Origin: Patescibacteria group bacterium
Lineage (GTDB): Bacteria; Patescibacteriota; Minisyncoccia; Portnoybacterales; UBA2143
Length of the DNA: 64,000 bases
Assembly (NCBI GenBank): GCA_018830295.1
Contig: JAHJSM010000001.1
Span: 65,980 to 129,979 of the forward strand
Reading direction: 5' to 3'
The notes beneath the pieces are model-generated. The model worked only from the letters and a program-made list of their open reading frames with translations, was not told the DNA's origin and searched no databases. Positions 2,597 through 60,287 of the stretch are shown piece after piece. The stretch's first letter is position 1. Each line of letters starts with the position of its first letter. Position numbers and translations under genes: made by a program.

Positions 2597-2619
2597 AAAT
2601 TACAGCCCCTTCGGATATT

Positions 2620-7992: not shown

Positions 7993-9204
7993 TTATCCTA
8001 TCTCATCCTTAGTTAAAAATTCTCTGATATTCATCTGTTTAATTCCTTTATACTCGCCTTTATCTATCATTTCATCCATGGAAACCACTATTTTAGGACA
8101 ATTATCCGGAATTGCCAATAAATTACCGAATTCTCTTTCATAATTTTCTTCGGTAATTTTATAAGCGACCTGAATATACAATCGCTTATTATTTTTTTCG
8201 CAGACAAAATCAACTTCCTTATTGCCAAGCTGTCCAACTGTCACTTTACAGCCAATAATTTGCATATGCAGAAAGACCAAATTTTCCAATATCTTATTAA
8301 TATCGGGCTGTTTATACCCCGCGATTGAATGCCTTAAGCCGAGATCTTCAAAATAATATTTGTCGTTGATTTCAAAAATCTTTTTGCCTTGAATGTCCGA
8401 CCGAGGAACCTTAAAAACAAAAAACGCTTGCGTCAAAAAAGACAAATAATCCAAAACGATATTAGGCGAAATATCTGTTTTTTGCGATTTTATAAAATCG
8501 CTGATTTTCTTGGCTGAAACCAAACTGCCAGTATTGTCAGCCAAATATTCAACCAACCTTTCTAAAAAAGCGGCATTGCGAATTTTGTGCCTATTGACCA
8601 CATCCTTAAAAAGAATTGTGTTATAAACATTTCTTAAATAATCGTAAACTATTGAGTCCTCTAATTCTAAATGAATTAAATAAGGCAGCCCACCGTATTT
8701 TATATATTTTAAAAACGACTCCTGATTATCCGATAATTTATGAAAAAATAAAAATTCTAAATAAGACAAACCGAAAACTTTAAATTCAATATACCTGCCG
8801 CTTAAATATGTCGCTAATTCTCCTGAAAGCAAATTAGCATTGCTGCCCGTGCAATAAATATCATACTTGCCTCTGGCGTTAAGGTCTCTTAATGCCTTCT
8901 CAAACTGTTTAATATCCTGAACTTCATCAATAAATATATAATTTTTTCTTCTCGTTTGAGTATTTCGCTTAACAAAATCTATAAGATCTTTATAGTTTTT
9001 AATTTCGTCAAATTCATTAAGTTCTTTGTTGATATAAATAATATTGGCGTTTTTGTGATTTTTCTTAACTACATCCATAAGTTGAAAAAGAAGATAACTT
9101 TTACCCACTCTCCTTTGCCCAACAATAACCTTAATAAGCCCTTTGTCCATAAAGGGGGCAATTTTTTTTAAGTAATATTTTCTTTTAATATACTTTTTGA
9201 TCAT
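7993..9204 (-). CDS. AAA+ ATPase of the DUF4143/COG1373 family
   Basis: 403 aa. Walker A IVGQRRVGKSYLL and Walker B YIFIDEVQ are present, and the C-terminal region fits DUF4143. A second, divergent copy lies at 32290..33591. Confidence 0.6.
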   Translation of the reverse strand: MIKKYIKRKYYLKKIAPFMDKGLIKVIVGQRRVGKSYLLFQLMDVVKKNHKNANIIYINKELNEFDEIKNYKDLIDFVKRNTQTRRKNYIFIDEVQDIKQFEKALRDLNARGKYDIYCTGSNANLLSGELATYLSGRYIEFKVFGLSYLEFLFFHKLSDNQESFLKYIKYGGLPYLIHLELEDSIVYDYLRNVYNTILFKDVVNRHKIRNAAFLERLVEYLADNTGSLVSAKKISDFIKSQKTDISPNIVLDYLSFLTQAFFVFKVPRSDIQGKKIFEINDKYYFEDLGLRHSIAGYKQPDINKILENLVFLHMQIIGCKVTVGQLGNKEVDFVCEKNNKRLYIQVAYKITEENYEREFGNLLAIPDNCPKIVVSMDEMIDKGEYKGIKQMNIREFLTKDEIG

Positions 9205-9252
9205 AAGATTTTTTGCGAGATATACTTAAAACTTTCTCGTATTCACTCTATG

Positions 9253-9270
9253 TTTTAAGTATACTTAAAA
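9253..9270. promoter_or_regulatory. perfect 18 bp palindrome TTTTAAGTATACTTAAAA with an upstream half-site copy (9220-9236)
   Basis: The sequence is its own reverse complement. The half-site ATATACTTAAAACTTTC repeats 39 bp upstream. Both lie in the 85 bp gap upstream of the DUF4143 ATPase start. Confidence 0.45.
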
Positions 9271-9289
9271 CTTTTCAAATGTCAATATT

Positions 9290-17494: not shown

Positions 17495-17525
17495 GGGGGC
17501 TGCCCCCGCAACGGGGGCAGCCCCC
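17495..17525. repeat. REP-B variant hairpin GGGGGCTGCCCCC-gcaac-GGGGGCAGCCCCC, terminator-like
   Basis: 13 bp stem. On the minus strand a run of U follows it (plus strand aaaaaaa at 17488-17494). It lies 3' of gene 17529..17852. Confidence 0.7.
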
Positions 17526-17852: not shown

Positions 17853-17873
17853 AATATTTATTGTTAATGGCTA

Positions 17874-17894
17874 TTCGGCTATCGGATAGCCGAA
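17874..17894. repeat. REP-A palindrome TTCGGCTATCGGATAGCCGAA
   Basis: Perfect 21 bp palindrome lying 3' of the HD-domain gene. Confidence 0.8.
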
Positions 17895-17900
17895 TGATAT

Positions 17901-18917
17901 TTATCTGCTGAATTTTATGAAATACTCCTTTGGTTTGGATTCTTTCTCAACAAATTCCGCCCACCCTCCGTCAACCTCTGAAAGTCGTTTTATTGAATCG
18001 CTCTCTTTAAACAACGGGTCAACTATTCTTGATTTACAAAAAACCCGAGCATAATAATCGTTCGGATTATTTTCAAAAGATATTTTATTATTCATTCTAT
18101 CTAAAAACAAACTCATTTTGAGGTCTTTCTCCTTATATTTCTCAACCTTAGCCAAGACCTCATCTTCGGTCGTCCACAAATCATCTTTGGAAATATATTC
18201 CTTTTCTATAGCGTGCTTCATCGCATCACCAACCGTTCTAAACATAATCGCCGACGATAATCCCGCATAATAATTTTTATTTAAATTTGAAAACAACAAC
18301 GCGTATTTTTTAGCGCTTTTCAAATCGTTAAAAACCCACCTATTATTTTCAATCGCCAAACTATCTAAAAAATATTTTATTTCTTTGGTGTTCGTCTCTT
18401 GAAAATGCGTAGCTGACCTTAATGAATAATCAATTCTATCAGCGCATAAATCAGGTAATTTTTTCTCTAATAAAGGAAAATTTTCTTCATTCAAAATATA
18501 GTCCAAATCAAAATTATATTTTTCCAAAATGCTTGGAATTTTTGTCGTTCTAACAAAGTCCGCGAAGATATCGTCTTGATAACTTTGTTCTGTCTCCGAG
18601 CCCTCGTCAAAAACATAGTCAATACAATGAGAAAAAGCGGAATGCGAAAGGTCGTGAAGCAAACCAGACACCTGTTCCTCAAGAGAGGCGTTAAATTTTT
18701 TAAGCAGAATAAAAACGCCCACTGAATGGTCAAAACGGTTATGCTGCAATTGGCTCAAAGGAAGTGATTTAGGATTGGCGTAAAGAGGCAAATACCCCGC
18801 TTGGTCTATCCCCTTCAACCGCCGAAAACAAGCCGCCTCCATAATCTCCAAAACCAACGGCTCCCCAATCTCAACCCCTCCATAAACTTTATCAATATAT
18901 TTCATAATTTTCCCCAA
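17901..18917 (-). CDS. HD-domain metal-dependent phosphohydrolase
   Basis: 338 aa. HD-domain motifs are present: RFDHSVGV, LLHDLSHSAFSH and CADRIDYSLRSA. Confidence 0.6.
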   Translation of the reverse strand: MGKIMKYIDKVYGGVEIGEPLVLEIMEAACFRRLKGIDQAGYLPLYANPKSLPLSQLQHNRFDHSVGVFILLKKFNASLEEQVSGLLHDLSHSAFSHCIDYVFDEGSETEQSYQDDIFADFVRTTKIPSILEKYNFDLDYILNEENFPLLEKKLPDLCADRIDYSLRSATHFQETNTKEIKYFLDSLAIENNRWVFNDLKSAKKYALLFSNLNKNYYAGLSSAIMFRTVGDAMKHAIEKEYISKDDLWTTEDEVLAKVEKYKEKDLKMSLFLDRMNNKISFENNPNDYYARVFCKSRIVDPLFKESDSIKRLSEVDGGWAEFVEKESKPKEYFIKFSR

Positions 18918-18998: not shown

Positions 18999-19614
18999 AT
19001 TCCGTGAAATCTTTTTTAAATTGTTTTTTGTCTGCGATAAATAACTCAAAAAATTTATTTTGATTAGTGACAAATGAAAAATTATCTTTTCCAATAATAT
19101 CTAAATAACTTGACCATTTATAATCTTCTAAAAATTTTATCGTTTGTTTCTGATTGCTTAGACCGTTTTCCTTCCAATTTTTATCAATTAATTGAATTGG
19201 ATTAGCAAAAATATAAAATGGTAAATACGTAAAATGATTATCTTTCTTTATAAGGATTATTTTTGACTTACCTTGAAATAAAACTCCGCTTCGTTCGTTT
19301 TTCAAATTAAAATATTGAGTATAGCTACTATTTACTTTCTTAGAAAACATACTTGCGCCGCCGTCGCGCTTCTCTCGAACTAAAATATGATAATGATTAG
19401 ACATCAAGCACCAACACAAAACATCCACCAACCCATCATCATCGCTGGTCGGCTTTCGGATAGCCGACCGTCGTTTGTGGTATGACATAAATGTTTCGTT
19501 TTTATTGTTAAAGTCGTAGAGATTATGAACAAAACGCAAATAATCTCTTTCATCAAGAAAAATTTTACGCTTATCTACACCTCTATTTAAGATATGATAA
19601 ATATCTCCCTTCAT
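18970..19614 (-). CDS. IS200/IS605-family Y1 transposase of the REP-associated (RAYT, TnpA_REP) type
   Basis: 214 aa. YHILNRGVDKRKIF...LMSNHYHILV is the HuH motif, SSYTQYFN carries the candidate catalytic Tyr, and FQGKSK and YKWSSY follow. This pattern matches E. coli RAYT and IS200 TnpA. REP-A family palindromes flank it on both sides. Confidence 0.75.
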   Translation of the reverse strand: MKGDIYHILNRGVDKRKIFLDERDYLRFVHNLYDFNNKNETFMSYHKRRSAIRKPTSDDDGLVDVLCWCLMSNHYHILVREKRDGGASMFSKKVNSSYTQYFNLKNERSGVLFQGKSKIILIKKDNHFTYLPFYIFANPIQLIDKNWKENGLSNQKQTIKFLEDYKWSSYLDIIGKDNFSFVTNQNKFFELFIADKKQFKKDFTEWLFGFTKAE

Positions 19615-19617
19615 AAT

Positions 19618-20112
19618 TTATTTGTCTGTTCGGCTATCCGATAGCCGAATGATTGTATGAGTCAATATTTGAATAATTTTTCTTTTTGGTTTACCTTTTT
19701 TGTTTTTGCCGTAAGTATAGTGATGAATTGACGGAACGCCATTTTTTGAAGAGTTGCTAATCGCTTTGCCATCGCCTAAATAAAATCCTATGTGTCGATG
19801 TAATATTTCATCAACACCCTTTCTTTCTTCCCAAACAAGAACATTGCCTGGAACTAATTTCTTAGTTTTCTCCCATCCATTTTCGAGCATATCTTTAACT
19901 GTACTTTTGACTGTGGCATGGGGCGATAAAATCAAGCCGAAAAAATTTAAAATAGACGAAACATGATAGGCGCAAGAAAGATTGCCATTTTTAAGAATGT
20001 CTCTTTTCTTGCCGTTTTCTAAAACATAAAGCCGCCGAAACATTTTACAGCCCCGACTCGCCCTAATCGCCTCTAAATAATTTTGATAAACAAGAATTTT
20101 AAGTTTTGACAT
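19618..20112 (-). CDS. hypothetical protein, possible Cys/His hydrolase-like
   Basis: 164 aa. The last 11 residues are encoded by REP-A. Cys (LSCAYH) and His (HRHIGFYLG) positions could form a catalytic dyad. I could not assign a family. Confidence 0.35.
19629..19649. repeat. REP-A palindrome TTCGGCTATCCGATAGCCGAA
   Basis: Perfect 21 bp palindrome 15 bp upstream of the RAYT start. It also encodes the C-terminal [10 protein letters not shown] of ORF 19618..20112. Confidence 0.8.
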
Positions 20113-23923: not shown

Positions 23924-23994
23924 ATACCTCTATTATATATCCTGTAAAGAATTCTTGTCAAGTGGATAAGTAAGAATGCTTAACACCAGAATAA

Positions 23995-24015
23995 TTCGGC
24001 TATCCGATAGCCGAA
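23995..24015. repeat. REP-A palindrome (extended form AATTCGGCTATCCGATAGCCGAATT)
   Basis: Perfect palindrome 5 bp after the secA stop. Confidence 0.8.
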
Positions 24016-24019
24016 TTGT

Positions 24020-26572
24020 TTATTGCCCGCAGCATTTTTTGAATTTTTTTCCGGAGCCGCAGGGGCAGGGGTCGTTTCGGCCTGCTTTTGTCGCGGAGGC
24101 CGTTTTGGGGACAGTCCCCGCAACGGGGACTGTCCCCAAGGGTTGATGCGCTATTGGAGCGTTGGGCGAAATAGAGACCTTGTAAATCATATTAACGACT
24201 GTTGATTGGATTGCCGCCATTAATCTTTGAAAAAGACGAATCCCCTCGTTTTTGTATTCCACCAACGGATCTTTTTGCCCGTAAGCGCGCAAGCGGACGC
24301 TGTCTCGCAAGTGGTCCATATTGTCCAAGTGGTCCATCCAAAGCGTGTCCAGAGAACGCAAGAGAACATATTTTTCAACGCGACGCGCGTTATCTTCGCC
24401 CAAATCATCTTCCTTTTTTTTGTACGCCTCCTCGGCTAATTTAATTAAATAATCAGAAACCTCGCCCTCGCTTTTCAGTTCCGCCAACGCCCGCGGCAAT
24501 TCCTCTGTTTGAAAAATACTCCCAATGATTTGACTAACTTCTTCGCGAGCGGCAATTTTCTTAATTTCATCCTTAATCATTTCCACCACTTCCGTTCTGA
24601 CATTCTTTTCTCTCAAAACCGCTTTTCGTTTTTTGTAAATCGTCTCCCTCTGCTTATTCATAACATCATCGTATTCCAAAATATGCTTCCGCGCGTCAAG
24701 ATTATATCCCTCAATCCTGCCCTGCGCCGATTCAATCGCTTTGGAAACCAACTTGTTTTCAAGCGGTTGGTCTTCAGGCACTTTCAGCATCTCCATCATT
24801 GACTTAACCCTGTCCCCGCCAAAAACGCGCATCAAATCGTCTTCCAAGGAAACGAAAAATTGACTGGAACCGGGGTCGCCCTGCCGTCCCGCTCTTCCCC
24901 GCAACTGGTCGTCAATCCGCCTCGCCTCGTGCCTCTCCGTCCCGATAACATGGAGACCGCCCAGCCCCGCCACTTCGTCATGCTTCGCCTCCTTTTCGCT
25001 TTCCTCCAAATCCCGCCCGCCTAAAATAATATCAACGCCCCGACCTGCCATATTGGTCGCGACTGTCACCGCCCCCTTCTGCCCCGCTTGAGCAAGAATT
25101 CGCGCTTCCTGTTCGTGGTTTTTCGCGTTAAGAATTTGGTGAGGGATGCCTTCTTTTCCTAAATAAGCCGAAAGCAGTTCGTTTTTTTCAATAGAAACCG
25201 TTCCCACTAAAACGGGCTGTCCCGCCTGGTATCTCTTTTTAATATCCCCAACAATCGCCCGCAATTTCCCATTCTCGTTTTTGTAAATGCTATCCGGCAA
25301 ATCCTCTCGGATCGCCGGCTTGTTGGTCGGAACCTCAACCACTTTTAATTTGTAAACCTTGTCAAACTCCTCGGCGGAAGTCAGAGCCGTTCCCGTCATT
25401 CCCGAAAGTTTTTCATACATCCGAAAATAGTTTTGAAAAGTAATAGAAGCAAGCGTGCGGCTTTCCTGTTGAACGCGGACATTTTCTTTCGCCTCAAGCG
25501 CCTGATGTAAACCGTCCGAATATCTTCGTCCTGGCATTAAACGCCCCGTGAATTCATCAACGATAATCACCTGCCCGTCTTTAACAACATAATCCCTGTC
25601 TTTTTTGAAAATAACCTCCGCCCGAAGCGCCTGTTCCAAATGGTGAACATAACGAATGCCGCCTTCTTCATAAATATTGTCCATTCCCAATATTTTTTCC
25701 ACCTTGTCAGTGCCTTCCTCCGTCAGAGTCACCGCTTTCATTTTTTCGTCCAAATTGTAATCGGCGTTCTCTTTCAACTGTGGCGTAATCCGACAAAACT
25801 GCTCATACATTTTCGTTGACTCCGCGTCAGGCATGGAAATAATCAGAGGCGTTCGCGCTTCATCAATTAAAATGCTGTCTATCTCGTCAACAATCGCGAA
25901 ATACGGCTCGCGTTGAGCCATCGCCTCCAAAGAAGGCGCCATATTATCCCGCAAATAATCAAAACCGAATTCGTTGTTCGTCCCGTAGGTAATATCCGCC
26001 AAATACGCCTCTTTGCGGACGACCTCCTTAAGGTTTTCCATTTCAACCGTAATTTCGTTTTCGTCAGGCGCTGTTTGCGGTTCAAAAATAAATGACTTTT
26101 CGTGATTAAGACAGGCAACGGAAATTCCCAAAAGATGGAAAATCGGACCCATCCAGTTGGCGTCTCTTCGGGATAAATAGTCGTTAACTGTGACAATATG
26201 AACGCCCTTGCCCGTAAGCGCGTTTAAGTAGGCCGCCAAAACAGAGGACAAGGTTTTACCCTCGCCCGTTTTCATCTCGGCGATCTGCCCCCGATGCAAA
26301 ACAACCCCGCCAATTAATTGAACATCAAAATGCCTCTGTCCAAGAGTTCTTTTTGCCGCCTCGCGCGCCAAAGCAAACGCCTCGGGAAGCAAATCATCCA
26401 ACGACTCGCCTTTCTCTAAGCGCGCCTTAAATTCCGCCGTCTTATCCTTCAACTCCCCATCGGGAAGAGAAGCAAACTCCTTTTCAAGTTCGTTAATCCT
26501 CTCAACTAACGGCCCAACATCCCTCAAATTCTTCTCATTAGCATCCCCAAAAATTTTAGTAAAAAATGACAT
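24020..26572 (-). CDS. secA: preprotein translocase ATPase SecA
   Basis: 850 aa. The N-terminus MSFFTKIFGD...KTGEGKT is present. The C-terminal zinc-binding tail is CPCGSGKKFKKCCGQ. Confidence 0.9.
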   Translation of the reverse strand: MSFFTKIFGDANEKNLRDVGPLVERINELEKEFASLPDGELKDKTAEFKARLEKGESLDDLLPEAFALAREAAKRTLGQRHFDVQLIGGVVLHRGQIAEMKTGEGKTLSSVLAAYLNALTGKGVHIVTVNDYLSRRDANWMGPIFHLLGISVACLNHEKSFIFEPQTAPDENEITVEMENLKEVVRKEAYLADITYGTNNEFGFDYLRDNMAPSLEAMAQREPYFAIVDEIDSILIDEARTPLIISMPDAESTKMYEQFCRITPQLKENADYNLDEKMKAVTLTEEGTDKVEKILGMDNIYEEGGIRYVHHLEQALRAEVIFKKDRDYVVKDGQVIIVDEFTGRLMPGRRYSDGLHQALEAKENVRVQQESRTLASITFQNYFRMYEKLSGMTGTALTSAEEFDKVYKLKVVEVPTNKPAIREDLPDSIYKNENGKLRAIVGDIKKRYQAGQPVLVGTVSIEKNELLSAYLGKEGIPHQILNAKNHEQEARILAQAGQKGAVTVATNMAGRGVDIILGGRDLEESEKEAKHDEVAGLGGLHVIGTERHEARRIDDQLRGRAGRQGDPGSSQFFVSLEDDLMRVFGGDRVKSMMEMLKVPEDQPLENKLVSKAIESAQGRIEGYNLDARKHILEYDDVMNKQRETIYKKRKAVLREKNVRTEVVEMIKDEIKKIAAREEVSQIIGSIFQTEELPRALAELKSEGEVSDYLIKLAEEAYKKKEDDLGEDNARRVEKYVLLRSLDTLWMDHLDNMDHLRDSVRLRAYGQKDPLVEYKNEGIRLFQRLMAAIQSTVVNMIYKVSISPNAPIAHQPLGTVPVAGTVPKTASATKAGRNDPCPCGSGKKFKKCCGQ
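24107..24137. repeat. REP-B hairpin embedded in-frame in the secA C-terminal linker
   Basis: GGGGACAGTCCCC-gcaac-GGGGACTGTCCCC. Translated on the minus strand in the secA frame it gives GTVPVAGTVP. It lies 29 codons before the stop, between the body and the zinc-finger tail. Confidence 0.75.
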
Positions 26573-29018: not shown

Positions 29019-29028
29019 AAACGCGCCA

Positions 29029-29049
29029 TTCGGCTATCCGATAGCCGAA
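29029..29049. repeat. REP-A palindrome TTCGGCTATCCGATAGCCGAA
   Basis: Perfect 21 bp palindrome between the metalloprotease gene 3' end and the murB start. Confidence 0.8.
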
Positions 29050-29060
29050 TATTACGGCTA

Positions 29061-30881: not shown

Positions 30882-32213
30882 ATGCCAAATATAAAACGAC
30901 TAGCCCTCATCTTAGGCGACATCGCCGTTTTGTACTTATCCCTCTGGTTCACCCTCTTTATTCGCTATGGGATTAGTTTTGATTTTCGTATCTGGCAACA
31001 GCACTTTTGGCCATTCACGATTATTTATCTCCTTTGGCTGACCATTTTCTATATCGCTGGCCTCTATGAATTAACTTTAGCCAGAAACAGTATTGATTTC
31101 TATTCCACTCTCTTGCGAGGAATGCTCATTAACATCGGACTCGCGATCGCCTTTTTTTACTTTATCCCATACTTCGGCATCGCCCCCAAAACAAACCTCT
31201 TTATAAATTTAGCCGTTTTCGCCCTGCTCTTTTCCGGCTGGCGGCAGTTATATAATCATTCCGTCAGAACATTCGCCTTCGCAAGCAATGTTTTAATCAT
31301 TGGCAAAAACAAAGAAATTGACCAAACAATCGCGGTTATTAAAAAAAATCCCCAACTGGGCTACAAAGTCATCAAACACATCGGACCCGAAGACATCCAA
31401 ACGCCCTTTGACCTTCTGGAAATGGCGACGCAAAAAAATATTAAAACAATTATCACGGCGATTGACCCCCACAAAAACAACCGATTAGTCCGAAGTTTGT
31501 ATCAATGCCTCCCTTTAAAAATCAGTTTCAGCGACCTGCCTTCTTTTTACGAAAAAATATTAGGCAAAGTGCCTGTTTCCGGCATCGGCGAAATTTGGTT
31601 TTTGGAAAATTTGACCGAGAGCCGAAAAAATTTCTACGAAGCGTTCAAACGCGTTTGCGATATGAGCGGCGCTTGTATCTTTGGCGCGATTAGTTTAATT
31701 TTTTATCCATTTATCGCCTTAGCGATTAAAATCGACAGCAAAGGACCAGTTTTTTATAAACAAATCAGAACAGGACAAGACGGACAAATTTTCAAAGTAA
31801 TCAAATTTCGTTCCATGATTGAAGAAGCGGAAAAAGACGGCGCCCAGTGGGCTGACCAGCAAGACCACCGCATCACGCGCGTCGGCAAGTTTATGAGAAA
31901 AACCCGCCTGGACGAACTGCCTCAATTGTGGAATGTCCTTGTCGGACAAATGAGTTTTATCGGACCCCGCCCCGAAAGAATAGAATTCGCCCAGCAATTG
32001 GAAAAAGAAATTCCCTACTACCAAATCCGCCACATCGTCAAACCGGGCCTAACCGGCTGGGCGCAAGTCAACTTTCGCTACGGCGCCTCCGTCGCAGACA
32101 GCATGGAAAAACTCCAATACGAACTCTACTACATCAAACACCGCTCCCTCGTCTTGGATTTAAGCATTCTTTTAAGAACGATTAAAATTATTTTGGGAGG
32201 ATTGGGAAGATAA
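30882..32213 (+). CDS. initiating polyprenyl-phosphate sugar-phosphate transferase (WbaP/Bac_transf family)
   Basis: 443 aa. N-terminal TM helices are present. The C-terminal GPVFYKQIRTGQDGQIFKVIKFRSM...DELPQLWNVLVGQMSFIGPRPE matches the bacterial sugar transferase domain. Confidence 0.8.
   Translation: MPNIKRLALILGDIAVLYLSLWFTLFIRYGISFDFRIWQQHFWPFTIIYLLWLTIFYIAGLYELTLARNSIDFYSTLLRGMLINIGLAIAFFYFIPYFGIAPKTNLFINLAVFALLFSGWRQLYNHSVRTFAFASNVLIIGKNKEIDQTIAVIKKNPQLGYKVIKHIGPEDIQTPFDLLEMATQKNIKTIITAIDPHKNNRLVRSLYQCLPLKISFSDLPSFYEKILGKVPVSGIGEIWFLENLTESRKNFYEAFKRVCDMSGACIFGAISLIFYPFIALAIKIDSKGPVFYKQIRTGQDGQIFKVIKFRSMIEEAEKDGAQWADQQDHRITRVGKFMRKTRLDELPQLWNVLVGQMSFIGPRPERIEFAQQLEKEIPYYQIRHIVKPGLTGWAQVNFRYGASVADSMEKLQYELYYIKHRSLVLDLSILLRTIKIILGGLGR
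32172..32211. repeat. 40 bp direct repeat, left copy (TTAAGAACGATTAAAATTATTTTGGGAGGATTGGGAAGAT)
   Basis: Identical at all 40 positions to 33598-33637. It encodes the last 13 codons of the PGT gene. Confidence 0.9.
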
Positions 32214-33597
32214 TCCTGTCCCCTAAATACTTGCAACCAAATCTTATTTATTATACTATAAGCAGTATAATAAATGTAATTATTATACTATGGATAATAT
32301 TATAAAAACAATCTTATACGAATGGCGAGAGCATAAACTTCCAAAAATAATTCGCAGAGAAACAGATTTAACAAAATATCTGAATTTAAAAACGCCTAAA
32401 ATTATAACCATAACCGGATTTAGAAGAGTGGGAAAAACTTATTTAATTTTTGATTTAATTGAAGAATTGTTAAAAACTCACCATAAAGAGGAAGTCGTTT
32501 ATATTAATTTTGAAGACGAGAGAATTCCAAGCGATATAAAAGTTCTAACACAATTAATCCCAACAATCAATGAAACATACAACCACACTACTAAATACTT
32601 ATTTTTAGATGAAATACAAAATATTCCAAACTGGAGCCAGTGGGTCAGACGAATTTATGATCAAGAAAATATAAAAATATTTATAACTGGTTCTTCGTCT
32701 AAATTATCATCAAAAGAGATTCCCACTGAATTAAGGGGTCGATGTATTGAAAAAACCATTATGCCATTGTCTTTTAGGGAATTTTTGCTTTTCAAGAACA
32801 TTAAAATAGACCTTGCGTCCCTTCCTTATTTAGACAAAGAAAAATCAAAAACCAATAAAGCATTAGAAGAATATCTTTATTATGGAGGACTGCCCGAAAT
32901 TGTATTAACAAGCAAGGAACATAAATTTGAAATTTTGCAGCAATATTATAAAACGGTGATAAGCCAAGACATAATGGACCGATTTAAAATAAAAAACGAA
33001 ACAATGTTAAAAGCGCTTTTAATGCTTCTTTTGAATTCCACGATTTATTCTATAAGTAAAATATACAAAACACTAAGAAGCGCTGGGCATAAAATAGGTC
33101 CAACCACTGTAATGAAATATATCTCATATATAGAAAATTCTTATTTTTTAAACAATCTTTTTATTTTTTCATACACAGTCAAAGACCGCCTTCAATATCC
33201 TAAAAAAATATATTTTATTGACAACGGTTTTATAAACGCGCTATCTTCAACTTTTTCTAAAAACACCGGGAGATTATTTGAAAATATTGTTTTTAATAAA
33301 ATAAAAAGCGAATTAAAAATTAATGAAGAATTGTTCTATTGGCAAGATAAAAGGCAAAAAGAAGTTGATTTTGTTGTTAAAAAGGGAAACAAAATAATAA
33401 ATTTAATCCAAGTATCGTCTAATTTAGATAATATCGGAACAAAAGAAAGGGAAATAAATAACCTTCTTAAAGCCGATAAAGAATTGAATTGCAATAATTT
33501 AACAATAATTAACAAAGACATAGACAGCAAGGAAAAAATAGGCGGTCAAACAATAAAATTTACTCCGCTTTATAAATTCTTGTTAGAATAAAACAAA
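32212..33597 (+). mobile_element. 1.39 kb insertion carrying a single DUF4143 AAA ATPase gene, bounded by the 40 bp direct repeats
   Basis: Deleting one repeat copy and the intervening segment would give a PGT stop overlapping the GT2 ATG (ATGA), with the GGGAGG Shine-Dalgarno intact. No recombinase gene lies in the segment. Confidence 0.45.
32290..33591 (+). CDS. AAA+ ATPase of the DUF4143/COG1373 family (second copy)
   Basis: 433 aa. Walker A ITGFRRVGKTYLI and Walker B YLFLDEIQ are present. It is divergent from 7993..9204. Confidence 0.6.
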   Translation: MDNIIKTILYEWREHKLPKIIRRETDLTKYLNLKTPKIITITGFRRVGKTYLIFDLIEELLKTHHKEEVVYINFEDERIPSDIKVLTQLIPTINETYNHTTKYLFLDEIQNIPNWSQWVRRIYDQENIKIFITGSSSKLSSKEIPTELRGRCIEKTIMPLSFREFLLFKNIKIDLASLPYLDKEKSKTNKALEEYLYYGGLPEIVLTSKEHKFEILQQYYKTVISQDIMDRFKIKNETMLKALLMLLLNSTIYSISKIYKTLRSAGHKIGPTTVMKYISYIENSYFLNNLFIFSYTVKDRLQYPKKIYFIDNGFINALSSTFSKNTGRLFENIVFNKIKSELKINEELFYWQDKRQKEVDFVVKKGNKIINLIQVSSNLDNIGTKEREINNLLKADKELNCNNLTIINKDIDSKEKIGGQTIKFTPLYKFLLE

Positions 33598-33637
33598 TTA
33601 AGAACGATTAAAATTATTTTGGGAGGATTGGGAAGAT
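33598..33637. repeat. 40 bp direct repeat, right copy
   Basis: Identical to 32172-32211. It supplies the RBS and the first two nucleotides of the GT2 start codon at 33636. Confidence 0.9.
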
Positions 33638-34502
33638 GAAAAAAATATCAGTCGTTATACCAGTTTACAATGAAGCGACAACCGTTGAAAAGGTGATTCA
33701 AGACCTGCGGTTGGTTTTGAGCGCGACTGCTGTTGATTATGAAATCATAGCCGTTGACGACGCCTCAAAAGACCAAAGCGGCGACATTCTTGAACAAATA
33801 AAAGACATTACTGTTATCCGCCATTCCGAAAATCAGGGCTATGGAGCGTCAATCAAAACCGGCGCTAAATCGGCGACCGGCGAATATATTTTGATTATTG
33901 ACGGCGACGCGACCTACCCCACCGAAGCCATTCCACGAATGATTGAACATATTGACCATTACGATCTGGTTTCTGGAGAACGCCGCGGGAAAAACTTTGA
34001 CGCGCGCTGGCTGTATTTGCAAAGAGTCGGAAAATTTGTTTTAAGAATGATTGCCAGTTATATCACACAACATAAAATCCCCGATATCAATTGCGGTTTA
34101 AGAATCTACAGAAAAGAAACATTTGATAAATTCCTATATTTATATCCAAATCAATTTTCCCTCACCACCACTTCATTGGTCGCCTTTTTGTCTAACAACT
34201 ATCGGGTTAAATTTATCCCGATTGATTATCATAAAAGAACTGGCAAATCAACGCTTAAGCCCCTCAAAAGTTTCGGACAATTTATCGGTCTACTTTTGAA
34301 AATTTCCCTTTTCTTCAAACCAATCAGAATTTTTCTACCGTTGAGCATGCTCTTGTTGTTGTCGGCCATATCAATCGCTTTCTATAGTTTATATTTCCAA
34401 GATATTTTTTACGACACAACAACCATTCTTCTCGCGACAACCGCCCTCCAAACCTTTTTCTTCGGCCTCTTGGCTGAAATCATCGTTCATAACCGCAGAT
34501 AA
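33636..34502 (+). CDS. GT2 glycosyltransferase, polyprenyl-phosphate sugar synthase-like (DPM1/GtrB/ArnC type) with C-terminal TM helices
   Basis: 288 aa. ISVVIPVYNEATTVEKV...YEIIAVDDASKDQS is present, with the DxD region at IIDGDATYP and two C-terminal TM segments. Confidence 0.7.
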   Translation: MKKISVVIPVYNEATTVEKVIQDLRLVLSATAVDYEIIAVDDASKDQSGDILEQIKDITVIRHSENQGYGASIKTGAKSATGEYILIIDGDATYPTEAIPRMIEHIDHYDLVSGERRGKNFDARWLYLQRVGKFVLRMIASYITQHKIPDINCGLRIYRKETFDKFLYLYPNQFSLTTTSLVAFLSNNYRVKFIPIDYHKRTGKSTLKPLKSFGQFIGLLLKISLFFKPIRIFLPLSMLLLLSAISIAFYSLYFQDIFYDTTTILLATTALQTFFFGLLAEIIVHNRR

Positions 34503-36861: not shown

Positions 36862-37727
36862 ATAATCTCTCAAAAATACTTTGTTCGAAAGATTATAAAA
36901 TTATAGATGGTGTTTTTGTTTTTGAGAAAGAAAAGATTAAAGAATACAAAATTCTTGAAAAAGCGCCATCCGACAATCCATTTAAATATTCTCTTCATTT
37001 TTGGCTTTATAAGAAATATTTAAGGAATTATTTAAAAGCAAAACCTAATGATTTAATCTTAGACATCGGTTGCGGAATAGGACACTCCTTGGATTATTTA
37101 AGCCGATTTTCAAATAATTTAGTCGGCATAGATACCGACCTGACTTCTCTGCTCTACGCGCGAAAAACAACTCAAGCCAAATATGTTTTAACCAAGGCGG
37201 AAAAACTACCATTCAAAGACAATACTTTCGACAAAATAATCAGTTTTAATGTTTTAGAGCATATTAATAATGACCAAGAAGCCATCAAAGAAATGAGAAG
37301 AGTCGCGAAAAACGGAGCAGAAATATTAATTTGGGTCCCATCTCTTGAAGGACCAAGAACAGATTCAAAATTAAAAAAATTAATGCACGAAGAAGAAAGT
37401 GGCGACGAAAAACATTTCAGAGATGGCTATTATATGAACGACCTTAAAAAACTTTTAATTAAAAATGGTATTGAAGTTATAAAGTCCCGTCATACTATAT
37501 TTCTTTTTGCCGAACTTTTCACGGAACTGACTAAATTTTTTTATTCAAAGAAACAAAAAAAATACCAGCGTCAAACTGATATATTTAATGTCACGGAAAG
37601 CAAACTTTTTGCTTTTTACAAAACAATTATGCCCCTAATAGCGCGAGTCGCGTTATTAGAAGATTTTTTATTTTCTTATTCTAAAAAAGGACATGCCTTG
37701 GTGGTTAAAGGAATAGTTAATAAATAA
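36855..37727 (+). CDS. class I SAM-dependent methyltransferase
   Basis: 290 aa. LDIGCGIGHSL (motif I), FDKIISFNVLEHI and a post-motif region are present. Confidence 0.65.
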   Translation: MLNNLSKILCSKDYKIIDGVFVFEKEKIKEYKILEKAPSDNPFKYSLHFWLYKKYLRNYLKAKPNDLILDIGCGIGHSLDYLSRFSNNLVGIDTDLTSLLYARKTTQAKYVLTKAEKLPFKDNTFDKIISFNVLEHINNDQEAIKEMRRVAKNGAEILIWVPSLEGPRTDSKLKKLMHEEESGDEKHFRDGYYMNDLKKLLIKNGIEVIKSRHTIFLFAELFTELTKFFYSKKQKKYQRQTDIFNVTESKLFAFYKTIMPLIARVALLEDFLFSYSKKGHALVVKGIVNK

Positions 37728-37728
37728 T

Positions 37729-39447
37729 TTACTTAACTAAATTCATTAGCCACCCCTTGTTCGCGGAAACTTCTATTTCTATTGGTTCAATTGAATTAGA
37801 AGCAATACTTATAACATCACTATAATTAGTGATTTTTTTATTTAATTCGTCGCTATATCCTAAAATATATTTCACTCCGAATTTTTCAAAGGCCTCGTTC
37901 AATTTGTTTTCTTCCAATAAATCCTCTACTGTTTTTTCTTGAAACGAAATAAGGGACTTATCTGTCATATAGTTCAAGTTATTTATTTCTGACGGATTTA
38001 AATTAACAGCAATAATATCTTCATCAGAAATATTCATCTTTTCTATCTCTTGAGCGTATGACTTAATTACTAAGTTAGTATTATGGTCATAAATATTATT
38101 CCAAACAACATGACCAACCAAAACAAAATTATACGAAACCAACATCACAATCACCGCATAGACAACAATTAATTTTTTGCCTTTTAATCCAAAATAATTT
38201 GCGATAGCTTCGGATAAAGATAATATTCCTAAGGTAATTAGTAAAGACAAAGCCCAGCCAAAATCCATTAAATGTGACCTGCTCACTAAAACAGCATATG
38301 AGAAAATAAGAATGGAGGAAATAATCCAATAGAAAATAAAATAATACAAATCCTTATTTTTTCTTCTAATCGCGGCTCCACCAATTAAAATTAGAAGAAA
38401 AACAAAAGCGCCGCCAATACCTTCTAATGAAAAGAATTTTGATATGTGTTTTGATAGCATCATTGTTCCAACCATTAATCTGTCAAACGGATTAATGCGG
38501 CCAAAAGCCAAATTGCTCATATTTTTTTTAAAGTATACTTCGCTTGATAAATCAAGTTCATTATTTTCTATTTGATTTTGAATGTTTCCTATAAATTCAT
38601 CAAACTTAAAATGATAGGTGTATGGGTCAGGAAAAAGATGTCCGTATGAAGCAAAATCAGAGGATTTAGTTTCTTCCGATGTCTCCGTAAATAGAAGTTT
38701 TATATTCGTATTTTCTGTCGCGCTCGGCAGCCAAAAAACAGCGAAGATAATTACAAAAGGAATAAGAATATATGTTAGGGCTAATTTTTTTTTGTAAAAC
38801 AATAAATAAAAGAATAAAAACGGAACAATCAATAAAAATGTCTCTTTAGACAATCCAGCTAAAGCCAAAAACACTCCCGAAATAACTAAATAAAAATAAT
38901 TTTTATTTTCGTTTGTCCCTAAAAAGTAAAACAAGAAAAACAAAGATGAAAAGAATAAGGCAAACTCATAATTACCGAAATAATACGGCAATTGCCAATT
39001 AAATGGTATGAAAACATAAATTAGAGAAAAAATTAAAGCTGTTTTAATATTAAATAAATAAAGAACAACTATTGTGAATATTAATAAAGTTAAAGCATGG
39101 ATAATAACAGATAACAACAGAAAACGACTCTCGCTTGGAAAACCCGTAAATTTAAAAACTTCAGCGTAAGAAAAAGAAGTCAGTTTGTTGCCAAATCTTG
39201 AAAGATGTCCTTCTTCTTCAACCAAATTTGAAGAAAGCAACACATTCAAATCATTCTCTATTGAAAAAGAATCAACCAAATAAAGGTTTCTGGCAATCAA
39301 CGCGTTGGGAGAAACAGTGTAAGCCGTATATCCCTTAAATAAAGCTGGAGCGCGCCAAACAACCACTGCCGAAACAAACACGGCCGCCAAAAATAAGCCA
39401 ACAAGTAAAAAATGTTTAATTTTGCTATTTAAAATTTTTTGTGACAT
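37729..39447 (-). CDS. polytopic membrane protein, putative GT-C-fold glycosyltransferase or polymerase
   Basis: 572 aa. There are about 11 TM segments and a C-terminal ~130 aa soluble domain, as in ArnT/PMT-like proteins. Confidence 0.4.
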   Translation of the reverse strand: MSQKILNSKIKHFLLVGLFLAAVFVSAVVVWRAPALFKGYTAYTVSPNALIARNLYLVDSFSIENDLNVLLSSNLVEEEGHLSRFGNKLTSFSYAEVFKFTGFPSESRFLLLSVIIHALTLLIFTIVVLYLFNIKTALIFSLIYVFIPFNWQLPYYFGNYEFALFFSSLFFLFYFLGTNENKNYFYLVISGVFLALAGLSKETFLLIVPFLFFYLLFYKKKLALTYILIPFVIIFAVFWLPSATENTNIKLLFTETSEETKSSDFASYGHLFPDPYTYHFKFDEFIGNIQNQIENNELDLSSEVYFKKNMSNLAFGRINPFDRLMVGTMMLSKHISKFFSLEGIGGAFVFLLILIGGAAIRRKNKDLYYFIFYWIISSILIFSYAVLVSRSHLMDFGWALSLLITLGILSLSEAIANYFGLKGKKLIVVYAVIVMLVSYNFVLVGHVVWNNIYDHNTNLVIKSYAQEIEKMNISDEDIIAVNLNPSEINNLNYMTDKSLISFQEKTVEDLLEENKLNEAFEKFGVKYILGYSDELNKKITNYSDVISIASNSIEPIEIEVSANKGWLMNLVK

Positions 39448-39448
39448 T

Positions 39449-40357
39449 TTATTTTGTCGCTTTCTTTATTCCTTGAACGCGATAATAATCTAAAATTTTG
39501 ACATAAATTATTTTGGGCAAGGGAATAAGCAACTTATCTAAAAAACAAATAATTTCGGTCGTTAAAAACATTATTGGCTTACTAAAAATAAGTTTTTTAA
39601 AAAATAATCTTATCGGATTCTTAGTTTCTTTATATTTAGACTTATATTCAAGTGCTGGGATTTTTTGAGCAAGAATAATAGATGATTGTCCTTTGTTAAA
39701 CATTGTTTTTTGATAACTCTTAAAATTAATTGGATGATTGTGATAAGCGACTGCCTTTTTATTAAAAACTGTTCTCATCCCATTTTTAAATAATCTATAT
39801 CCCAATTCTGAATCTTCGTAGGCGGCATACGGAAATTCTTCGTCAAATAATTCTGTTTTTTCTAAAAATTTTTTACGAATAGAAACATTAGAGGTATAAA
39901 AATATCCCCAATCAACATTGTTTTCATCGTTAATAGACGGATAAGCGAAATGATAATCGGTAATATATTTTCTAAAAGGAGTTATTCTGATTTGAGGCGC
40001 CCATTTAGTATAACCCAAAACTGATATATTCTCATTTGCTGTTCTGTGAATATTAATATGTTCCTCAAGTAAATTTTCTGAAGGAATTATGTCATCTCCT
40101 GTGAAAAAAATAATTTCGTTTTTTGCTTGTTTGATGCCAAGATTTCGAGCGCTGGCAGGACCTTTATTCTGTTGGAAAATATATTTTATTTTGAGAGACA
40201 AATTTATCCCTTTAACAACCTCCTCTGTCCCATCAGTGCTTCCATCGTCCACAATAATAATTTCAAAATTTTTGTATGATTGTCGAGAAAATGCTTTAAG
40301 CGTTTCAATTAAAGTATCTCTTCTATTGTAAGTTGGGATAACTACACTTAATTTCAT
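39449..40357 (-). CDS. GT2 glycosyltransferase
   Basis: 302 aa. LSVVIPTYNRRDTLIETLKAFSRQSYKNFEIIIVDDGSTDGT and a DDI motif are present. Confidence 0.75.
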   Translation of the reverse strand: MKLSVVIPTYNRRDTLIETLKAFSRQSYKNFEIIIVDDGSTDGTEEVVKGINLSLKIKYIFQQNKGPASARNLGIKQAKNEIIFFTGDDIIPSENLLEEHINIHRTANENISVLGYTKWAPQIRITPFRKYITDYHFAYPSINDENNVDWGYFYTSNVSIRKKFLEKTELFDEEFPYAAYEDSELGYRLFKNGMRTVFNKKAVAYHNHPINFKSYQKTMFNKGQSSIILAQKIPALEYKSKYKETKNPIRLFFKKLIFSKPIMFLTTEIICFLDKLLIPLPKIIYVKILDYYRVQGIKKATK

Positions 40358-41442
40358 TAATATTCACCTTTAATAATTTTGAAAATCATTTTTGGGCTTA
40401 AATAAATATTTGGAATTTGGTAGCATGAATGCGCGCAATAACATTCTTTTTTTCTAATTGATTTTCTCATTCTTTTTGCTTCTTCTGATTGCCAGATTTC
40501 AGTCAAATCATAATCAAATTCTCTTAAGTTGCCAATTTTTTTTCTGTTTTCGCAAGGGTAAACATTACCCAAGGCGTCAACCACTGGATAAAAAGCGGAT
40601 ATGCGGCAAGAGATAATTTGCTTTTTTTTTCTCAAAATATCCAAAGATAATCTGTGATAAATCGGAATAATCACTCTTTTATAAAAATTATTTTCGTTTT
40701 TATTTTCTTTTTTTAATATCTCTACAACTTGGGCAAATTTGTTCAAATCCGCTTCCTTTACTTTACTTTGATTATAATCCCCTCTCAATAACTCTAATCC
40801 GCCATAAATATCCGCCTCTGGTAGATTGTTTTCAACATATTTTACTAAATCAACAACTTTATCAATGTTTAAGTTAAAAACCGTCGTACATATTCTTAAT
40901 CTTAATTTTGAATATTTTTTCTTTAATTTAGACAGCCCCCTATAGGTTTCCAAGAATTTTTCAAAATTACCTTCAATTCCCCTAATTTTATCATGGTCCT
41001 TGCCAATGCCATCCAATGACAATCCAATCTTAACTCCGCCCTTAAATCTATTTAATATTTCCTCTGTTTTGGTTAAAATTTTATCAACCGATAAACAGTT
41101 GGTCGGAATAGCCACCATCTTAATATTGTTGTTTCTATTAAAACAACCAACGATTTCCACTAAATCATCCCGTAAAAATGGCTCGCCGCCCCCGATAGTT
41201 ACGGTATGCAAATCACCCAATTTTTTAGTAAATTTTTCTATCTCTTTTAGGGTCAACTCTTTATCTATGTCTTTGTTTAAAATTTTCCAATTAAAACAAG
41301 TAACACAACGAGAATTGCAAACATTAGTTATTTGAAAAATCAAACTATAAAAAGGTTTGGATCTCCCAGGCAAAGACCTCAAAAAAAACTTTATATAATC
41401 TGGATTATTTTTATAAAAACTTAACAATGGTCTAAAATTCAT
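40357..41442 (-). CDS. radical SAM protein with C-terminal SPASM/twitch-like Cys cluster, copy A
   Basis: 361 aa. CNSRCVTCFNW (C-x3-C-x2-C) and IGGGEPFLRDD are present. The C-terminal Cys residues are CRISAF..PCE...CYCAHSC. It shares a start/stop nucleotide with GT2 39449..40357 and overlaps GT2 41432..42421. Confidence 0.65.
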   Translation of the reverse strand: MNFRPLLSFYKNNPDYIKFFLRSLPGRSKPFYSLIFQITNVCNSRCVTCFNWKILNKDIDKELTLKEIEKFTKKLGDLHTVTIGGGEPFLRDDLVEIVGCFNRNNNIKMVAIPTNCLSVDKILTKTEEILNRFKGGVKIGLSLDGIGKDHDKIRGIEGNFEKFLETYRGLSKLKKKYSKLRLRICTTVFNLNIDKVVDLVKYVENNLPEADIYGGLELLRGDYNQSKVKEADLNKFAQVVEILKKENKNENNFYKRVIIPIYHRLSLDILRKKKQIISCRISAFYPVVDALGNVYPCENRKKIGNLREFDYDLTEIWQSEEAKRMRKSIRKKECYCAHSCYQIPNIYLSPKMIFKIIKGEY

Positions 41443-60253: not shown

Positions 60254-60287
60254 AAAAATTATTCATTTATCGATTTTTTAAAAATCT

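Follow-up and report, generated by a model that had tools for sequence, protein, structure and literature searches.

The window, by which we mean the whole 64-kb stretch of DNA that was analysed, carries a phosphoglycosyl transferase (PGT) gene (30882..32213, + strand; Pfam Bac_transf, E 5e-66) and a GT2 glycosyltransferase gene (33636..34502, + strand; Pfam Glycos_transf_2, E 4e-33), here called target genes X and Y. Between them lies an open reading frame on the same strand (32290..33591) for a 433-aa ATPase, assigned by Pfam to AAA_14 and DUF4143 and by PADLOC to PDC-S01. At 32172-32211 and 33598-33637 on the + strand, exactly where the preliminary description had placed them, are two identical copies of the 40-mer TTAAGAACGATTAAAATTATTTTGGGAGGATTGGGAAGAT, with no third copy in the window at up to three mismatches and a chance expectation of 0 for such a pair (100 shuffles). 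The repeat measures exactly 40 nt, and the adjoining bases differ between the copies (t/a before, a/g after). The left, attL-like copy closes the PGT coding sequence, comprising its final 13 codons (39 nt, 3′ end) and the T of the TAA stop codon. The right, attR-like copy supplies the GT2 gene with its ribosome-binding site, a GGGAGGA Shine-Dalgarno sequence, and with the AT of its ATG.

The 1,386 bp between the copies hold a 78-nt AT-rich leader (32212..32289, + strand), the ATPase gene as the single ORF and a 6-nt trailer, AACAAA (33592..33597, + strand), which forms the right edge of the insert between the ATPase stop codon and the right repeat; the earlier claim that a DUF4143 ATPase gene and a short leader are all the insert contains is thus borne out. 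The edges of this cassette are tight, 19 nt ahead of the −35 box and 6 nt beyond the stop codon; the ATPase gene ends in …GAATAAAACAAA and the leader begins AATCCTGTCCCC…. With a GC content of 0.275, as against 0.36 for the window, 0.43 for the PGT gene and 0.41 for the GT2 gene, the insert is the lowest-GC stretch of its length anywhere in the window. Removing it in silico together with one repeat copy gives ...GGGAAGATGAAAAAA, in which the PGT and GT2 genes share an ATGA stop/start overlap.

Promoter-like elements are present in the leader as TTGCAA (32231-32236) and TATACT (32252-32257), and the homologous leaders of two related loci (L089/L090; L numbers denote the loci compared) read TTGACA-16-TATACT. 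A consensus scan did not call the promoter of the window leader because its spacer is 15 nt, and the promoter/terminator scan found no terminator-like site in the insert. Abutting the ATG is an operator-like palindrome (32264..32289, + strand) with the arms AGTATAA (32264-32270) and TTATACT (32283-32289). Conservation of the palindrome extends over 76 leaders from the clade, in the form TAGTACAA-N13-TTGTACTA, with 91% of cells paired and compensatory changes in six of eight pairs, a pairing score that none of 500 shuffles equalled. Rfam gave no match in the insert. These signals are best explained by a self-contained cassette, with a putative promoter of its own, a palindromic operator-like site and a single ATPase gene.

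The encoded protein combines an AAA_14 domain (PF13173, E 1.3e-38, residues 36-166) with a DUF4143 domain (PF13635, E 2.9e-22, residues 226-377), and neither its Walker A motif GxxGKT (K49) nor the DE of Walker B varies in the family. Beyond these domains Pfam returned only weak AAA families, with no transposase or integrase in the sole ORF of the insert. The PADLOC profile PDLC04787 (PDC-S01) matches over the full length (E 5.1e-106, 353 bits); NCBIfam and PHROG gave no family for the ORF, a PDB sequence search gave no match, and a fold search gave only generic AAA+ relatives (RFC, Orc1/Cdc6, DnaA). In an AF2 model (pLDDT 81) the AAA+ module is closest to RFC/Orc1, and residues 326-426 form an alpha-beta-beta-beta-alpha-beta core that is PD-(D/E)xK-like. 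This nuclease-like domain carries the motif E358-x-D360...Q374-V-S, in which E358 and D360 are conserved, as is E331; family-wide the motif is E-x-D...Q-V-S/C rather than the canonical ExK, the (D/E)xK triad being replaced by Q-V-S/C throughout. The literature found for DUF4143 and COG1373 states only "function unknown", and on its sequence the gene is a candidate anti-phage gene of the PDC-S01 type.

That the ATPase gene had been inserted between the two glycan genes, as the preliminary description proposed, is confirmed by a natural empty allele in related sequence (L003, contig ERZ27247124 k141_410436). It has one 40-mer and the ATGA overlap, so that the sequence predicted by removal of the insert exists in nature, and it co-occurs in one sample with a filled allele (L173). 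The 40 bp are indeed duplicated target: the sequence is single-copy in the empty allele and both neighbours are preserved, only the PGT stop codon being altered, from TGA in the empty allele to TAA in the filled allele of the window. The 40-mer is the exact break point of several short-read assemblies (L001, L002, L006-L008), which could suggest that a mis-join at the repeat had produced the duplication or the position of the insert. However, each of five independent contigs, derived from different samples and with different assemblers, reads through both junctions (L005/L169, L170, L171, L172 and L173), the repeat copies carry differing SNPs, unlike a collapse artefact, and the empty allele comes from an assembly with k=141, larger than the repeat. 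An assembly artefact, against which a check had been advised, is therefore vanishingly improbable, and the ATPase gene is a real insertion at a site that is polymorphic for filled and empty alleles.

The insertion had also been called recent, which the data do not support. The insert occupies the identical site in strains whose GT2 genes have diverged by up to 8%, in most strains 2-3 of the 40 positions distinguish the left copy from the right, with mosaic haplotypes, and the empty allele is nested among the filled strains. In other strains the left repeat varies at its positions 9, 18 and 24; the haplotypes GTG, ATA, ACA and GCA are spread over left and right copies, and sites 9 and 18 show all four gametes. 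Downstream of the site, identity between the empty allele and filled strains is 99.6-99.75%, other filled strains being 92-96% identical at GT2, and the perfect match of the two repeat copies in the present genome is therefore no guide to the age of the insertion.

Junction repeats recur throughout the family. Flanking direct repeats (score of at least 18) were detected at 36 of 146 homologous ATPase genes, and among these positives L089/L090, L011/L076, L050/51/53 and L145/L020 are not independent; the control ORFs, taken from those loci as well, had them in 9 of 253 cases (Fisher p = 6e-10), an enrichment of about 7-fold over neighbouring genes. The control background of 3.6% is an overestimate, because most of the positive controls are tandem paralogues (response regulators, Bro-N/KilA-N) or genes adjoining an ATPase cassette. 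Long direct repeats, for which a search around other DUF4143 genes had been advised, thus do flank such genes; they range from 17 to 223 nt, and about 75% of the homologues have no detectable flanking repeat. A 52-nt repeat at L077 seemed the longest example and was discounted as part of a multi-copy REP-like palindromic element. The footprint is found in bacteria and archaea, and a second pair of filled and empty sites occurs in Woesearchaeota, where a 148-nt repeat in L147/L151 is single-copy in L184-L199 and 3 nt separate gene X from GT2 in the empty sites.

In each of the cases resolved the repeat is the end of a neighbouring gene, either the 3′ end (L147, L104, L089, L053, L012, L117) or the 5′ end (L145, L067, L158). 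Identical cores of 13-68 nt are accompanied by arms with synonymous-type differences, the reading frames being kept in both copies (L089, L088, L053, L076, L145). The left junction falls between −7 and +5 nt of the upstream stop codon in the window and in L117, L147, L053, L089 and L104, and the right repeat begins 0-16 nt past the ATPase stop codon in about 15 repeat-positive loci. Tandem accretion, absent from the window locus itself, is seen at L151 (X-DR-ATPaseA-DR-ATPaseB-DR-GT2), L043 (DR-ATPase'-DR-ATPase-DR), L107 (DR-ATPase-DR-AbiEi/AbiEii-DR-ATPase-DR) and L157. At such loci one repeat is reused in 3-4 copies that alternate with different cassettes, which at L107 include an AbiE cassette without an ATPase between the same repeats, and the 3′ ends that tandem cassettes have in common are recombinant.

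With two seeds only, both tyrosine recombinases (plasmid integrases), jackhmmer detected no member of that class among 1,076 ORFs, taken from the window and from every locus compared (~5 kb around 170 cassettes), and no helper of that class for a shared att site. Nor do terminal inverted repeats pair 32212-32240 with 33570-33597. Short ATPase-only contigs lacked the terminal overlaps of circles, except for L002, whose 20-nt overlap is what a k=31 graph is expected to give for a 40-nt repeat and was rejected as a circle. No tRNA was found at the repeats in 26 positive loci; the sole tRNA case is L176/L177, with a 13-nt repeat. Two distant homologues on plasmids adjoin integrase genes, and the plasmid homologues (34-38% identity) have no flanking repeats.

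Several mechanisms could leave such a footprint. The cassette might mobilise itself, with the DUF4143 ATPase making wide staggered nicks at a gene boundary and gap repair leaving a target-site duplication that is long and varies in length, a mechanism that would be new and akin to transposition. It would account for a repeat of pure target sequence, perfect in this genome, around the ATPase as sole gene, for the tight cassette edges and the strong repeat enrichment around the family, and for left junctions that lie, in several targets independently, at the stop codon upstream; the nuclease-like fold with its conserved E331, E358 and D360 would provide the activity. We nevertheless regard it as unlikely, given repeat lengths of 17-223 nt without terminal inverted repeats, coding-type substitutions in many repeat arms, as if one copy came from another genome, the AbiE cassette lacking an ATPase between the same repeats, the recombinant 3′ ends common to tandem cassettes and the Q-V-S/C that stands in place of the catalytic triad. 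The broader proposition that the AAA+/DUF4143 protein itself drives a new class of minimal mobile elements, embedding themselves at gene boundaries with long, variable, neighbour-sparing duplications, is slightly more doubtful again. Insertion sequences and transposons likewise bracket their insert with duplicated target, but this cassette has neither a transposase domain nor terminal inverted repeats, and its duplication, 40 nt here and highly variable in relatives, is far longer than their fixed 2-14 bp, as the preliminary description had remarked. Cas1 integration also yields unusually long target duplications, of roughly 14-15 bp for casposons and about 28-37 bp for the CRISPR repeat; the cassette differs in having no Cas1, no terminal inverted repeats and a duplication that varies from 17 to 223 nt.

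A one-off illegitimate capture is a possible but doubtful explanation. Here template switching or microhomology joining, with the polymerase re-entering 40 nt behind its exit, would have placed the cassette, long-flank homologous recombination would have spread it, and selection would have retained only insertions that left the two neighbours intact. The failure to find a recombinase, the variable repeat lengths, the foreign composition of the cassette and the sharing of one insertion by diverged strains all fit, and with gene spacers of 0-4 nt only junction-spanning duplications would survive. Yet such accidents would not be expected to produce a ~7-fold enrichment of repeats at one gene family over its neighbours, different cassettes reusing the same junction with 3-4 repeat copies, cassette limits from promoter to stop codon that are consistent across phyla, or the foreign-like arms of the mosaic repeats. 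Very unlikely, in our view, is a site-specific recombinase of the tyrosine, serine or Xer type acting in trans on the 40-mer as att site, with the cassette as a CIME-like non-autonomous element. Direct repeats around a recombinase-free element with one copy at the empty site, the tandem arrays at related loci and the integrase genes beside the two plasmid homologues argue for it. The sequence and length of the repeats are, however, unrelated between loci and correspond merely to the local gene end, the same pattern spans bacteria and archaea, the integrase-adjacent plasmid homologues lack flanking repeats, and neither the 64-kb window nor the ~5 kb around the 170 cassettes yielded an integrase in the tyrosine-recombinase search.

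We therefore favour, with a probability of about 0.5, a reading in which the repeat copies are attachment-like sites for the recombinational gain, stacking and precise loss of cassettes rather than the footprint of a transposase. For the target duplication, which the preliminary description had ascribed to a site-specific, replicative or template-switch insertion, the evidence from relatives leans towards an att-like, recombination-mediated type and away from a staggered cut, because lengths vary between 17 and 223 nt, the cores have arms with coding-type divergence, and repeats are reused 3-4 times, including by AbiE. In this model, a cassette that brings along a single copy of the end of a host gene, and is probably a small circle at this stage, would integrate at a matching gene end by short-homology (Campbell-type) recombination. 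At the window locus, embedding would have doubled the 40-bp PGT/GT2 junction within the glycan operon, so that the left copy retains the PGT C-terminus and the right copy the ribosome-binding site and start of GT2. With no predicted terminator in the insert, the operon should stay functional. Recombination between the copies would excise the cassette precisely and restore the ATGA overlap, recombination at repeat copies would stack further cassettes into arrays, and gene conversion between the copies or with other alleles would shuffle the repeat polymorphisms. The recombination functions would be those of host homologous recombination, outside the cassette unless the ATPase contributes. The circular intermediate, the dependence on homologous recombination and the first capture of a new junction are steps that we infer.

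Some observations sit less easily with attachment-like recombination. Neither a circular form nor a product of excision was seen in the assembled sequences. Identical cores of 13-40 nt are at or below the lengths efficient for RecA-type recombination, and about three quarters of the homologues are repeat-free by detection. The model leaves the first acquisition of a new junction unexplained; at least one illegitimate or enzyme-driven event is needed, because the PGT/GT2 junction is lineage-specific. Selection alone may not suffice for the precision of the left junction near stop codons, which could indicate a dedicated mechanism. Homology-facilitated illegitimate recombination as the sole explanation was rejected, since it predicts identical left parts of the copies and is contradicted by L089, L088 and L053.

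Comparison with known systems places the cassettes near, but not within, established classes. In Campbell-type single crossover, familiar from suicide plasmids and ends-in recombination, a circle with short homology integrates; the shared homology is duplicated on both sides, the copies are mosaic if the partners differ, and the event is reversible. The cassettes match this, except that their homologies are very short, with cores of 13-68 nt, and that no circle was seen among the contigs examined. CIMEs are non-autonomous att-flanked elements, and tandem accretion at one att site is known from ICESt1/ICESt3-type elements. They resemble the cassettes in having direct repeats around a recombinase-free element, one copy left after loss and stacked elements separated by a repeat; at the window locus, too, an identical core flanks the cassette and is single at the empty site, with no integrase inside the element. 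The cassettes differ in their single-gene cargo, in repeats without a shared sequence, each being just the end of a local gene, in their occurrence in Patescibacteria and DPANN archaea, and in that no cognate integrase-bearing element was found. Integron cassettes are likewise single-gene units in arrays that alternate with similar repeats, with defence genes as frequent cargo, but here each cassette has its own promoter, the arrays stand at ordinary gene junctions and no IntI was found. The repeat at the window locus is PGT coding sequence and GT2 ribosome-binding site, that is, host sequence rather than an attC hairpin, with neither an attC-type palindrome nor intI.

PDC-S01 emerged from a guilt-by-embedding search as a single-gene "phage defence candidate" (Payne et al., bioRxiv 10.1101/2024.01.29.577857); it is reported to rank fourth in frequency among defence-type genes of prokaryotes and to have passed repeatedly between bacteria and archaea (PMC12988326). 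The window ATPase belongs to the same family, an ATPase fused to a PD-(D/E)xK-like domain, and shares with it the habit of a lone gene embedded between co-oriented operon genes and the many transfers between bacteria and archaea; its host operon, however, is a glycan pathway, whereas the published hosts are BREX and DISARM as well as type I RM. Both papers leave the embedding mechanism for future exploration, and a text search of the discovery paper found direct repeats mentioned nowhere (10.1101/2024.01.29.577857). In the literature searched we found no description of the junction duplication or of filled and empty alleles.

The footprint reported here, a junction duplication that rebuilds both neighbours, with natural alleles that carry or lack the insert in two phyla, repeats that serve several cassettes and no recombinase gene found in or near the cassette, turns the question of how PDC-S01 becomes embedded into a concrete, testable form and gives a hint of how these genes might travel while encoding no recombinase themselves. 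It also indicates that these genes can enter biosynthetic operons of the tiny, packed genomes of Patescibacteria and DPANN archaea while leaving the operons unbroken. If the ATPase drives the process, a new kind of mobile element would be defined, and a "defence candidate" that ranks among the most abundant in prokaryotes would turn out to be, at least partly, a selfish gene that embeds itself through an undescribed recombination chemistry. If host recombination suffices, the cassettes would illustrate a general way for single genes with promoters of their own to spread and to become stacked at the ends of genes.

The 40-mer TTAAGAACGATTAAAATTATTTTGGGAGGATTGGGAAGAT is present in exactly two copies across the 64-kb window, with no third copy there even when three mismatches are allowed and none expected from shuffled sequence, and its length is exactly 40 nt because the bases adjoining the two copies differ at either side. 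The left copy (32172-32211) lies in frame with the final 13 codons of a Bac_transf phosphoglycosyl transferase gene (PGT, 30882-32213), its last base being the T of the PGT TAA stop, and the right copy (33598-33637) contains the GGGAGGA ribosome-binding site and the AT of the ATG start of a family-2 glycosyltransferase gene (GT2, 33636-34502). The 1,386 bp between them consist of a 78-nt leader, a single ATPase ORF (32290-33591; 433 aa; AAA_14, E 1e-38; DUF4143, E 3e-22) and six trailing bases, with a GC content of 0.275, the window minimum for that length (PGT 0.43, GT2 0.41). Eighteen nucleotides of the 40-mer (32186-32203 / 33612-33629) are 83% complementary to early ATPase coding sequence (32335-32352), probably by chance in AT-rich sequence.

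Retrieval of the same locus from other assemblies through exact-protein look-ups revealed that the PGT/GT2 site is polymorphic in nature. The contig L003 (ERZ27247124 k141_410436) carries a natural empty allele, comprising the PGT 3' end, one 40-mer and GT2, and reads ...GGGAAGATGAAAAAA. This bears out the preliminary description, which took the ATPase gene to be an insertion and predicted an ATGA overlap at the empty site; that overlap is present in L003. The repeat is target sequence, and both neighbouring genes are preserved. Both junctions of the filled allele are crossed by five contigs from other samples and assemblers (L005/L169, L170, L171, L172 and L173), L173 sharing a sample with the empty L003, and the short-read assemblies L001, L002 and L006-L008 break at the repeat, as expected for a 40-nt repeat in a k=31 graph; together with the empty allele, these observations exclude an assembly artefact. 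The same operon shows a further presence/absence polymorphism, a nitroreductase gene between GT2 and a B12-binding radical SAM gene in L170 (SRR13662871_1101, 2579-3232) that the window lacks.

The 40-mer varies among strains at positions 9, 18 and 24, which read GTG in both window copies and in the sole copy of L003, ATA (left) and GTG (right) in L005, GTG and ACA in L170, GCA and ATA in L171-L174, and ATA in L004 and L009, for the right copy alone. All four combinations at sites 9 and 18 are present, which implies recombination or conversion between 40-mer copies or between alleles. Identity among strains is 98.8-99.3% for the insert, 97.3-97.7% for full-length PGT (partial 3'-end matches down to 95.8%) and 91.8-99.3% for GT2. 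Along the 3.2 kb downstream, the empty L003 shares 99.56-99.75% identity with the filled window, L004 and L005, whereas the filled L170 and L173 reach just 96% and 92% at GT2, so the empty allele is nested among filled ones. Such nesting fits two histories: precise loss of the insert, with the two repeats recombining, or recombination that spread the insert. With repeat copies polymorphic in strains and the empty allele nested in this way, the "recent" insertion originally proposed is a poor match for the data, which do not resemble a fresh event in this genome. At the same site, L009 (Ga0180007_10168285) carries a mosaic ATPase whose first ~340 nt are unalignable to the window insert and whose other 1,008 nt match it at 98.3% identity (88% amino-acid identity overall), suggesting recombination between ATPase variants.

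Along its whole length the window ATPase matches PADLOC's PDC-S01 model (E 5e-106), which stands for a "phage defence candidate" made up of one gene. Its authors left open for exploration what its embedding signifies and how it arose (10.1101/2024.01.29.577857); a 2026 survey ranks it fourth in frequency among defences across prokaryotes, with multiple between-domain transfers and a defence role that lacks experimental validation (PMC12988326). Homologues sharing 53-61% identity come from Patescibacteria, DPANN archaea, Thermoplasmatota, methanogens, WOR-3 and others. We found no solved structure related by sequence. In the AlphaFold model (pLDDT 81) the predicted AAA+ module is nearest to RFC, Orc1/Cdc6 and DnaA, and a predicted C-terminal nuclease-like core has the order alpha-beta-beta-beta-alpha-beta. 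Residues E331, E358-x-D360 and Q374-V-S/C are kept in the family, and the canonical (D/E)xK triad is missing across the whole of it.

The window leader aligns to the leaders of its nearest relatives, L089 and L090 (TTGACA-16-TATACT), and has a promoter-like TTGCAA-15-TATACT at 32231-32257, on which the consensus promoter scan was silent because the spacer is 15 nt; a consensus scan found no terminator-like site in the insert. Directly before the ATG lies a palindrome (AGTATAA / TTATACT, 32264-32270 / 32283-32289). Over 76 bacterial and archaeal leaders of the ATPase clade (alignment A6) its consensus is TAGTACAA-N13-TTGTACTA, with 91% of cells paired and compensatory changes in 6/8 pairs, values matched by 0/500 shuffles; archaeal leaders also have a TTTAAATA box ~30 nt upstream of the ATG. 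It may serve as an operator bound by a dimer, or alternatively as a hairpin at the 5' end. Leader promoter, conserved palindrome and gene therefore define the mobile unit as "promoter + operator-like palindrome + gene", a promoter-bearing single-gene cassette that sits inserted at an operon junction.

Elsewhere in the window, a second, distantly related DUF4143 ATPase (7993-9204, minus strand; 29% identical to the first, E 1e-36) lies embedded between genes of the same orientation. A gap of 5 nt separates it from the gene downstream, and no direct repeat flanks it; within its leader (9205-9289) are a perfect 12-nt palindrome (9221-9232 / 9252-9263) and a direct repeat of 15 nt. Two intergenic palindrome families, TTCGGCTATCGGATAGCCGAA (835-868, 17871-17904, 19445-19659, 23992-24025, 29026-29059) and GGGGACAGTCCCC...GGGGACTGTCCCC (795-825, 17495-17525, 24107-24137), are probably terminator hairpins, and the insert's opening bases AATCCTGTCCCC (32212-32223) resemble half of the latter. 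GC below 0.30, comparable to the insert, recurs at 37200-40400 and 59900-64000, stretches that may be foreign DNA; one holds a 572-aa ORF (37729-39447, minus strand) with a matching gene in L003 and L004 that has no recorded Pfam hit.

This architecture is repeated throughout the family, in bacteria and archaea alike, and also forms arrays, among them one with a cassette that is not an ATPase. For 160 fetched homologue loci, the 500 nt upstream of each ATPase gene were compared with the 500 nt downstream, direct repeats scoring at least 18 being counted as positive and other ORFs of at least 250 aa from the same loci serving as controls. Flanking repeats were found for 36/146 ATPase genes versus 9/253 control ORFs (odds ratio 8.9, Fisher p = 6e-10), several of the positive controls being tandem paralogues or genes abutting a cassette. 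The repeats span 17-223 nt at 77-100% identity, and the right copy frequently begins 0-16 nt past the ATPase stop codon, the window being one such case. They consist of the end of a neighbouring gene: the 3' end of an upstream co-oriented gene (L147, L104, L089, L053, L012, L117), the 5' end of a downstream gene (L145/L020, L067, L158) or the 3' end of a convergent gene (L107, L017). At several independent targets the left junction lies within a few bases of the upstream stop codon. In L117 and in the window the cassette alters only the final stop-codon base or bases (TAA versus TAG in L117, TAA versus TGA in the window).

A second filled/empty pair comes from Woesearchaeota. In L147 a 148-nt repeat (95% identical), made up of the final 146 nt of a 396-aa gene plus 2 nt, brackets the ATPase; sixteen contigs with orthologues of that gene (L184-L199, 81-89% identical) have a single copy of the segment, and GT2 starts 3-5 nt after the orthologue (TAA-AAA-ATG in L184). 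At an L147-type junction, L151 carries two distinct ATPase cassettes and three repeat copies. L043 reads repeat-ATPase'-repeat-ATPase-repeat, its ATPases belonging to two different DUF4143 subfamilies, and in L107 four copies of a 55-77-nt repeat set apart two ATPases and the AbiEi/AbiEii-like pair that lies between them, the final copy overlapping an Lhr-type helicase gene at its 3' end. Tandem cassettes have near-identical 3' ends (139-234 nt, 84-97%) though their proteins are only ~40% identical. Repeats in L089, L088, L053, L076 and L145 share an identical 13-32-nt core between arms that differ mostly at synonymous-type positions, with the open frame to the stop retained in both copies. 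The orthologous loci L089 and L090 are 74-86% identical, yet the L090 repeat shows no mismatch over 68 nt and that of L089 is 88% identical, so the copies are at times homogenised.

Other contigs show related arrangements. A 66%-identical ATPase in L176/L177 lies just downstream of an AbiEii gene, with a tRNA gene 25 nt after it; the tRNA's last 13 nt (CACCTTCGCCCAC) are repeated upstream of the leader, the features in question lying ~145 nt upstream and 25-100 nt downstream of the ATPase. Some Woesearchaeota contigs (L184/L187, 84-1331) have a DUF4143 ATPase between an HTH/sigma-70-region-4 gene and a Laminin_G_3 gene, in place of which the related L192/L193 have PIN/RHH toxin-antitoxin genes.

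We infer that the repeats act as attachment-like sites. In this model, a cassette with one repeat copy, plausibly circular, would integrate by short-homology Campbell-type recombination; recombination between copies would delete it precisely, and recombination at any copy would stack cassettes. The model explains why the repeats are mosaic and of variable length, why there are arrays, why a recombinase is lacking and why bacteria and archaea both show the pattern. The insert has no transposase or integrase domain, and no terminal inverted repeats, tRNA at the repeats or Rfam match were found; a two-seed search of 1,076 ORFs, covering the window and every locus, detected no tyrosine recombinase. 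Two of the more distant plasmid homologues adjoin integrases, and these homologues lack flanking repeats; such homologues are found on 332 plasmids, 174 of them from Acinetobacter.

Attachment-like recombination leaves the first capture of a new junction and the frequent stop-codon left junction unexplained, and three alternatives to it are kept for this reason. One-off template-switch events, subsequently filtered by selection, are an unlikely source of the pattern, and a dedicated staggered-cut mechanism, possibly driven by the ATPase itself, appears somewhat more doubtful still; an unseen recombinase acting in trans seems very improbable. The ATPase gene family and the embedding phenomenon were already known, while junction duplication, filled and empty alleles and repeat reuse were not found in the searchable literature. 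We file the attachment-like unit as an att-flanked, recombinase-less integrative cassette, with a modest chance that it represents a new kind of mobile element.
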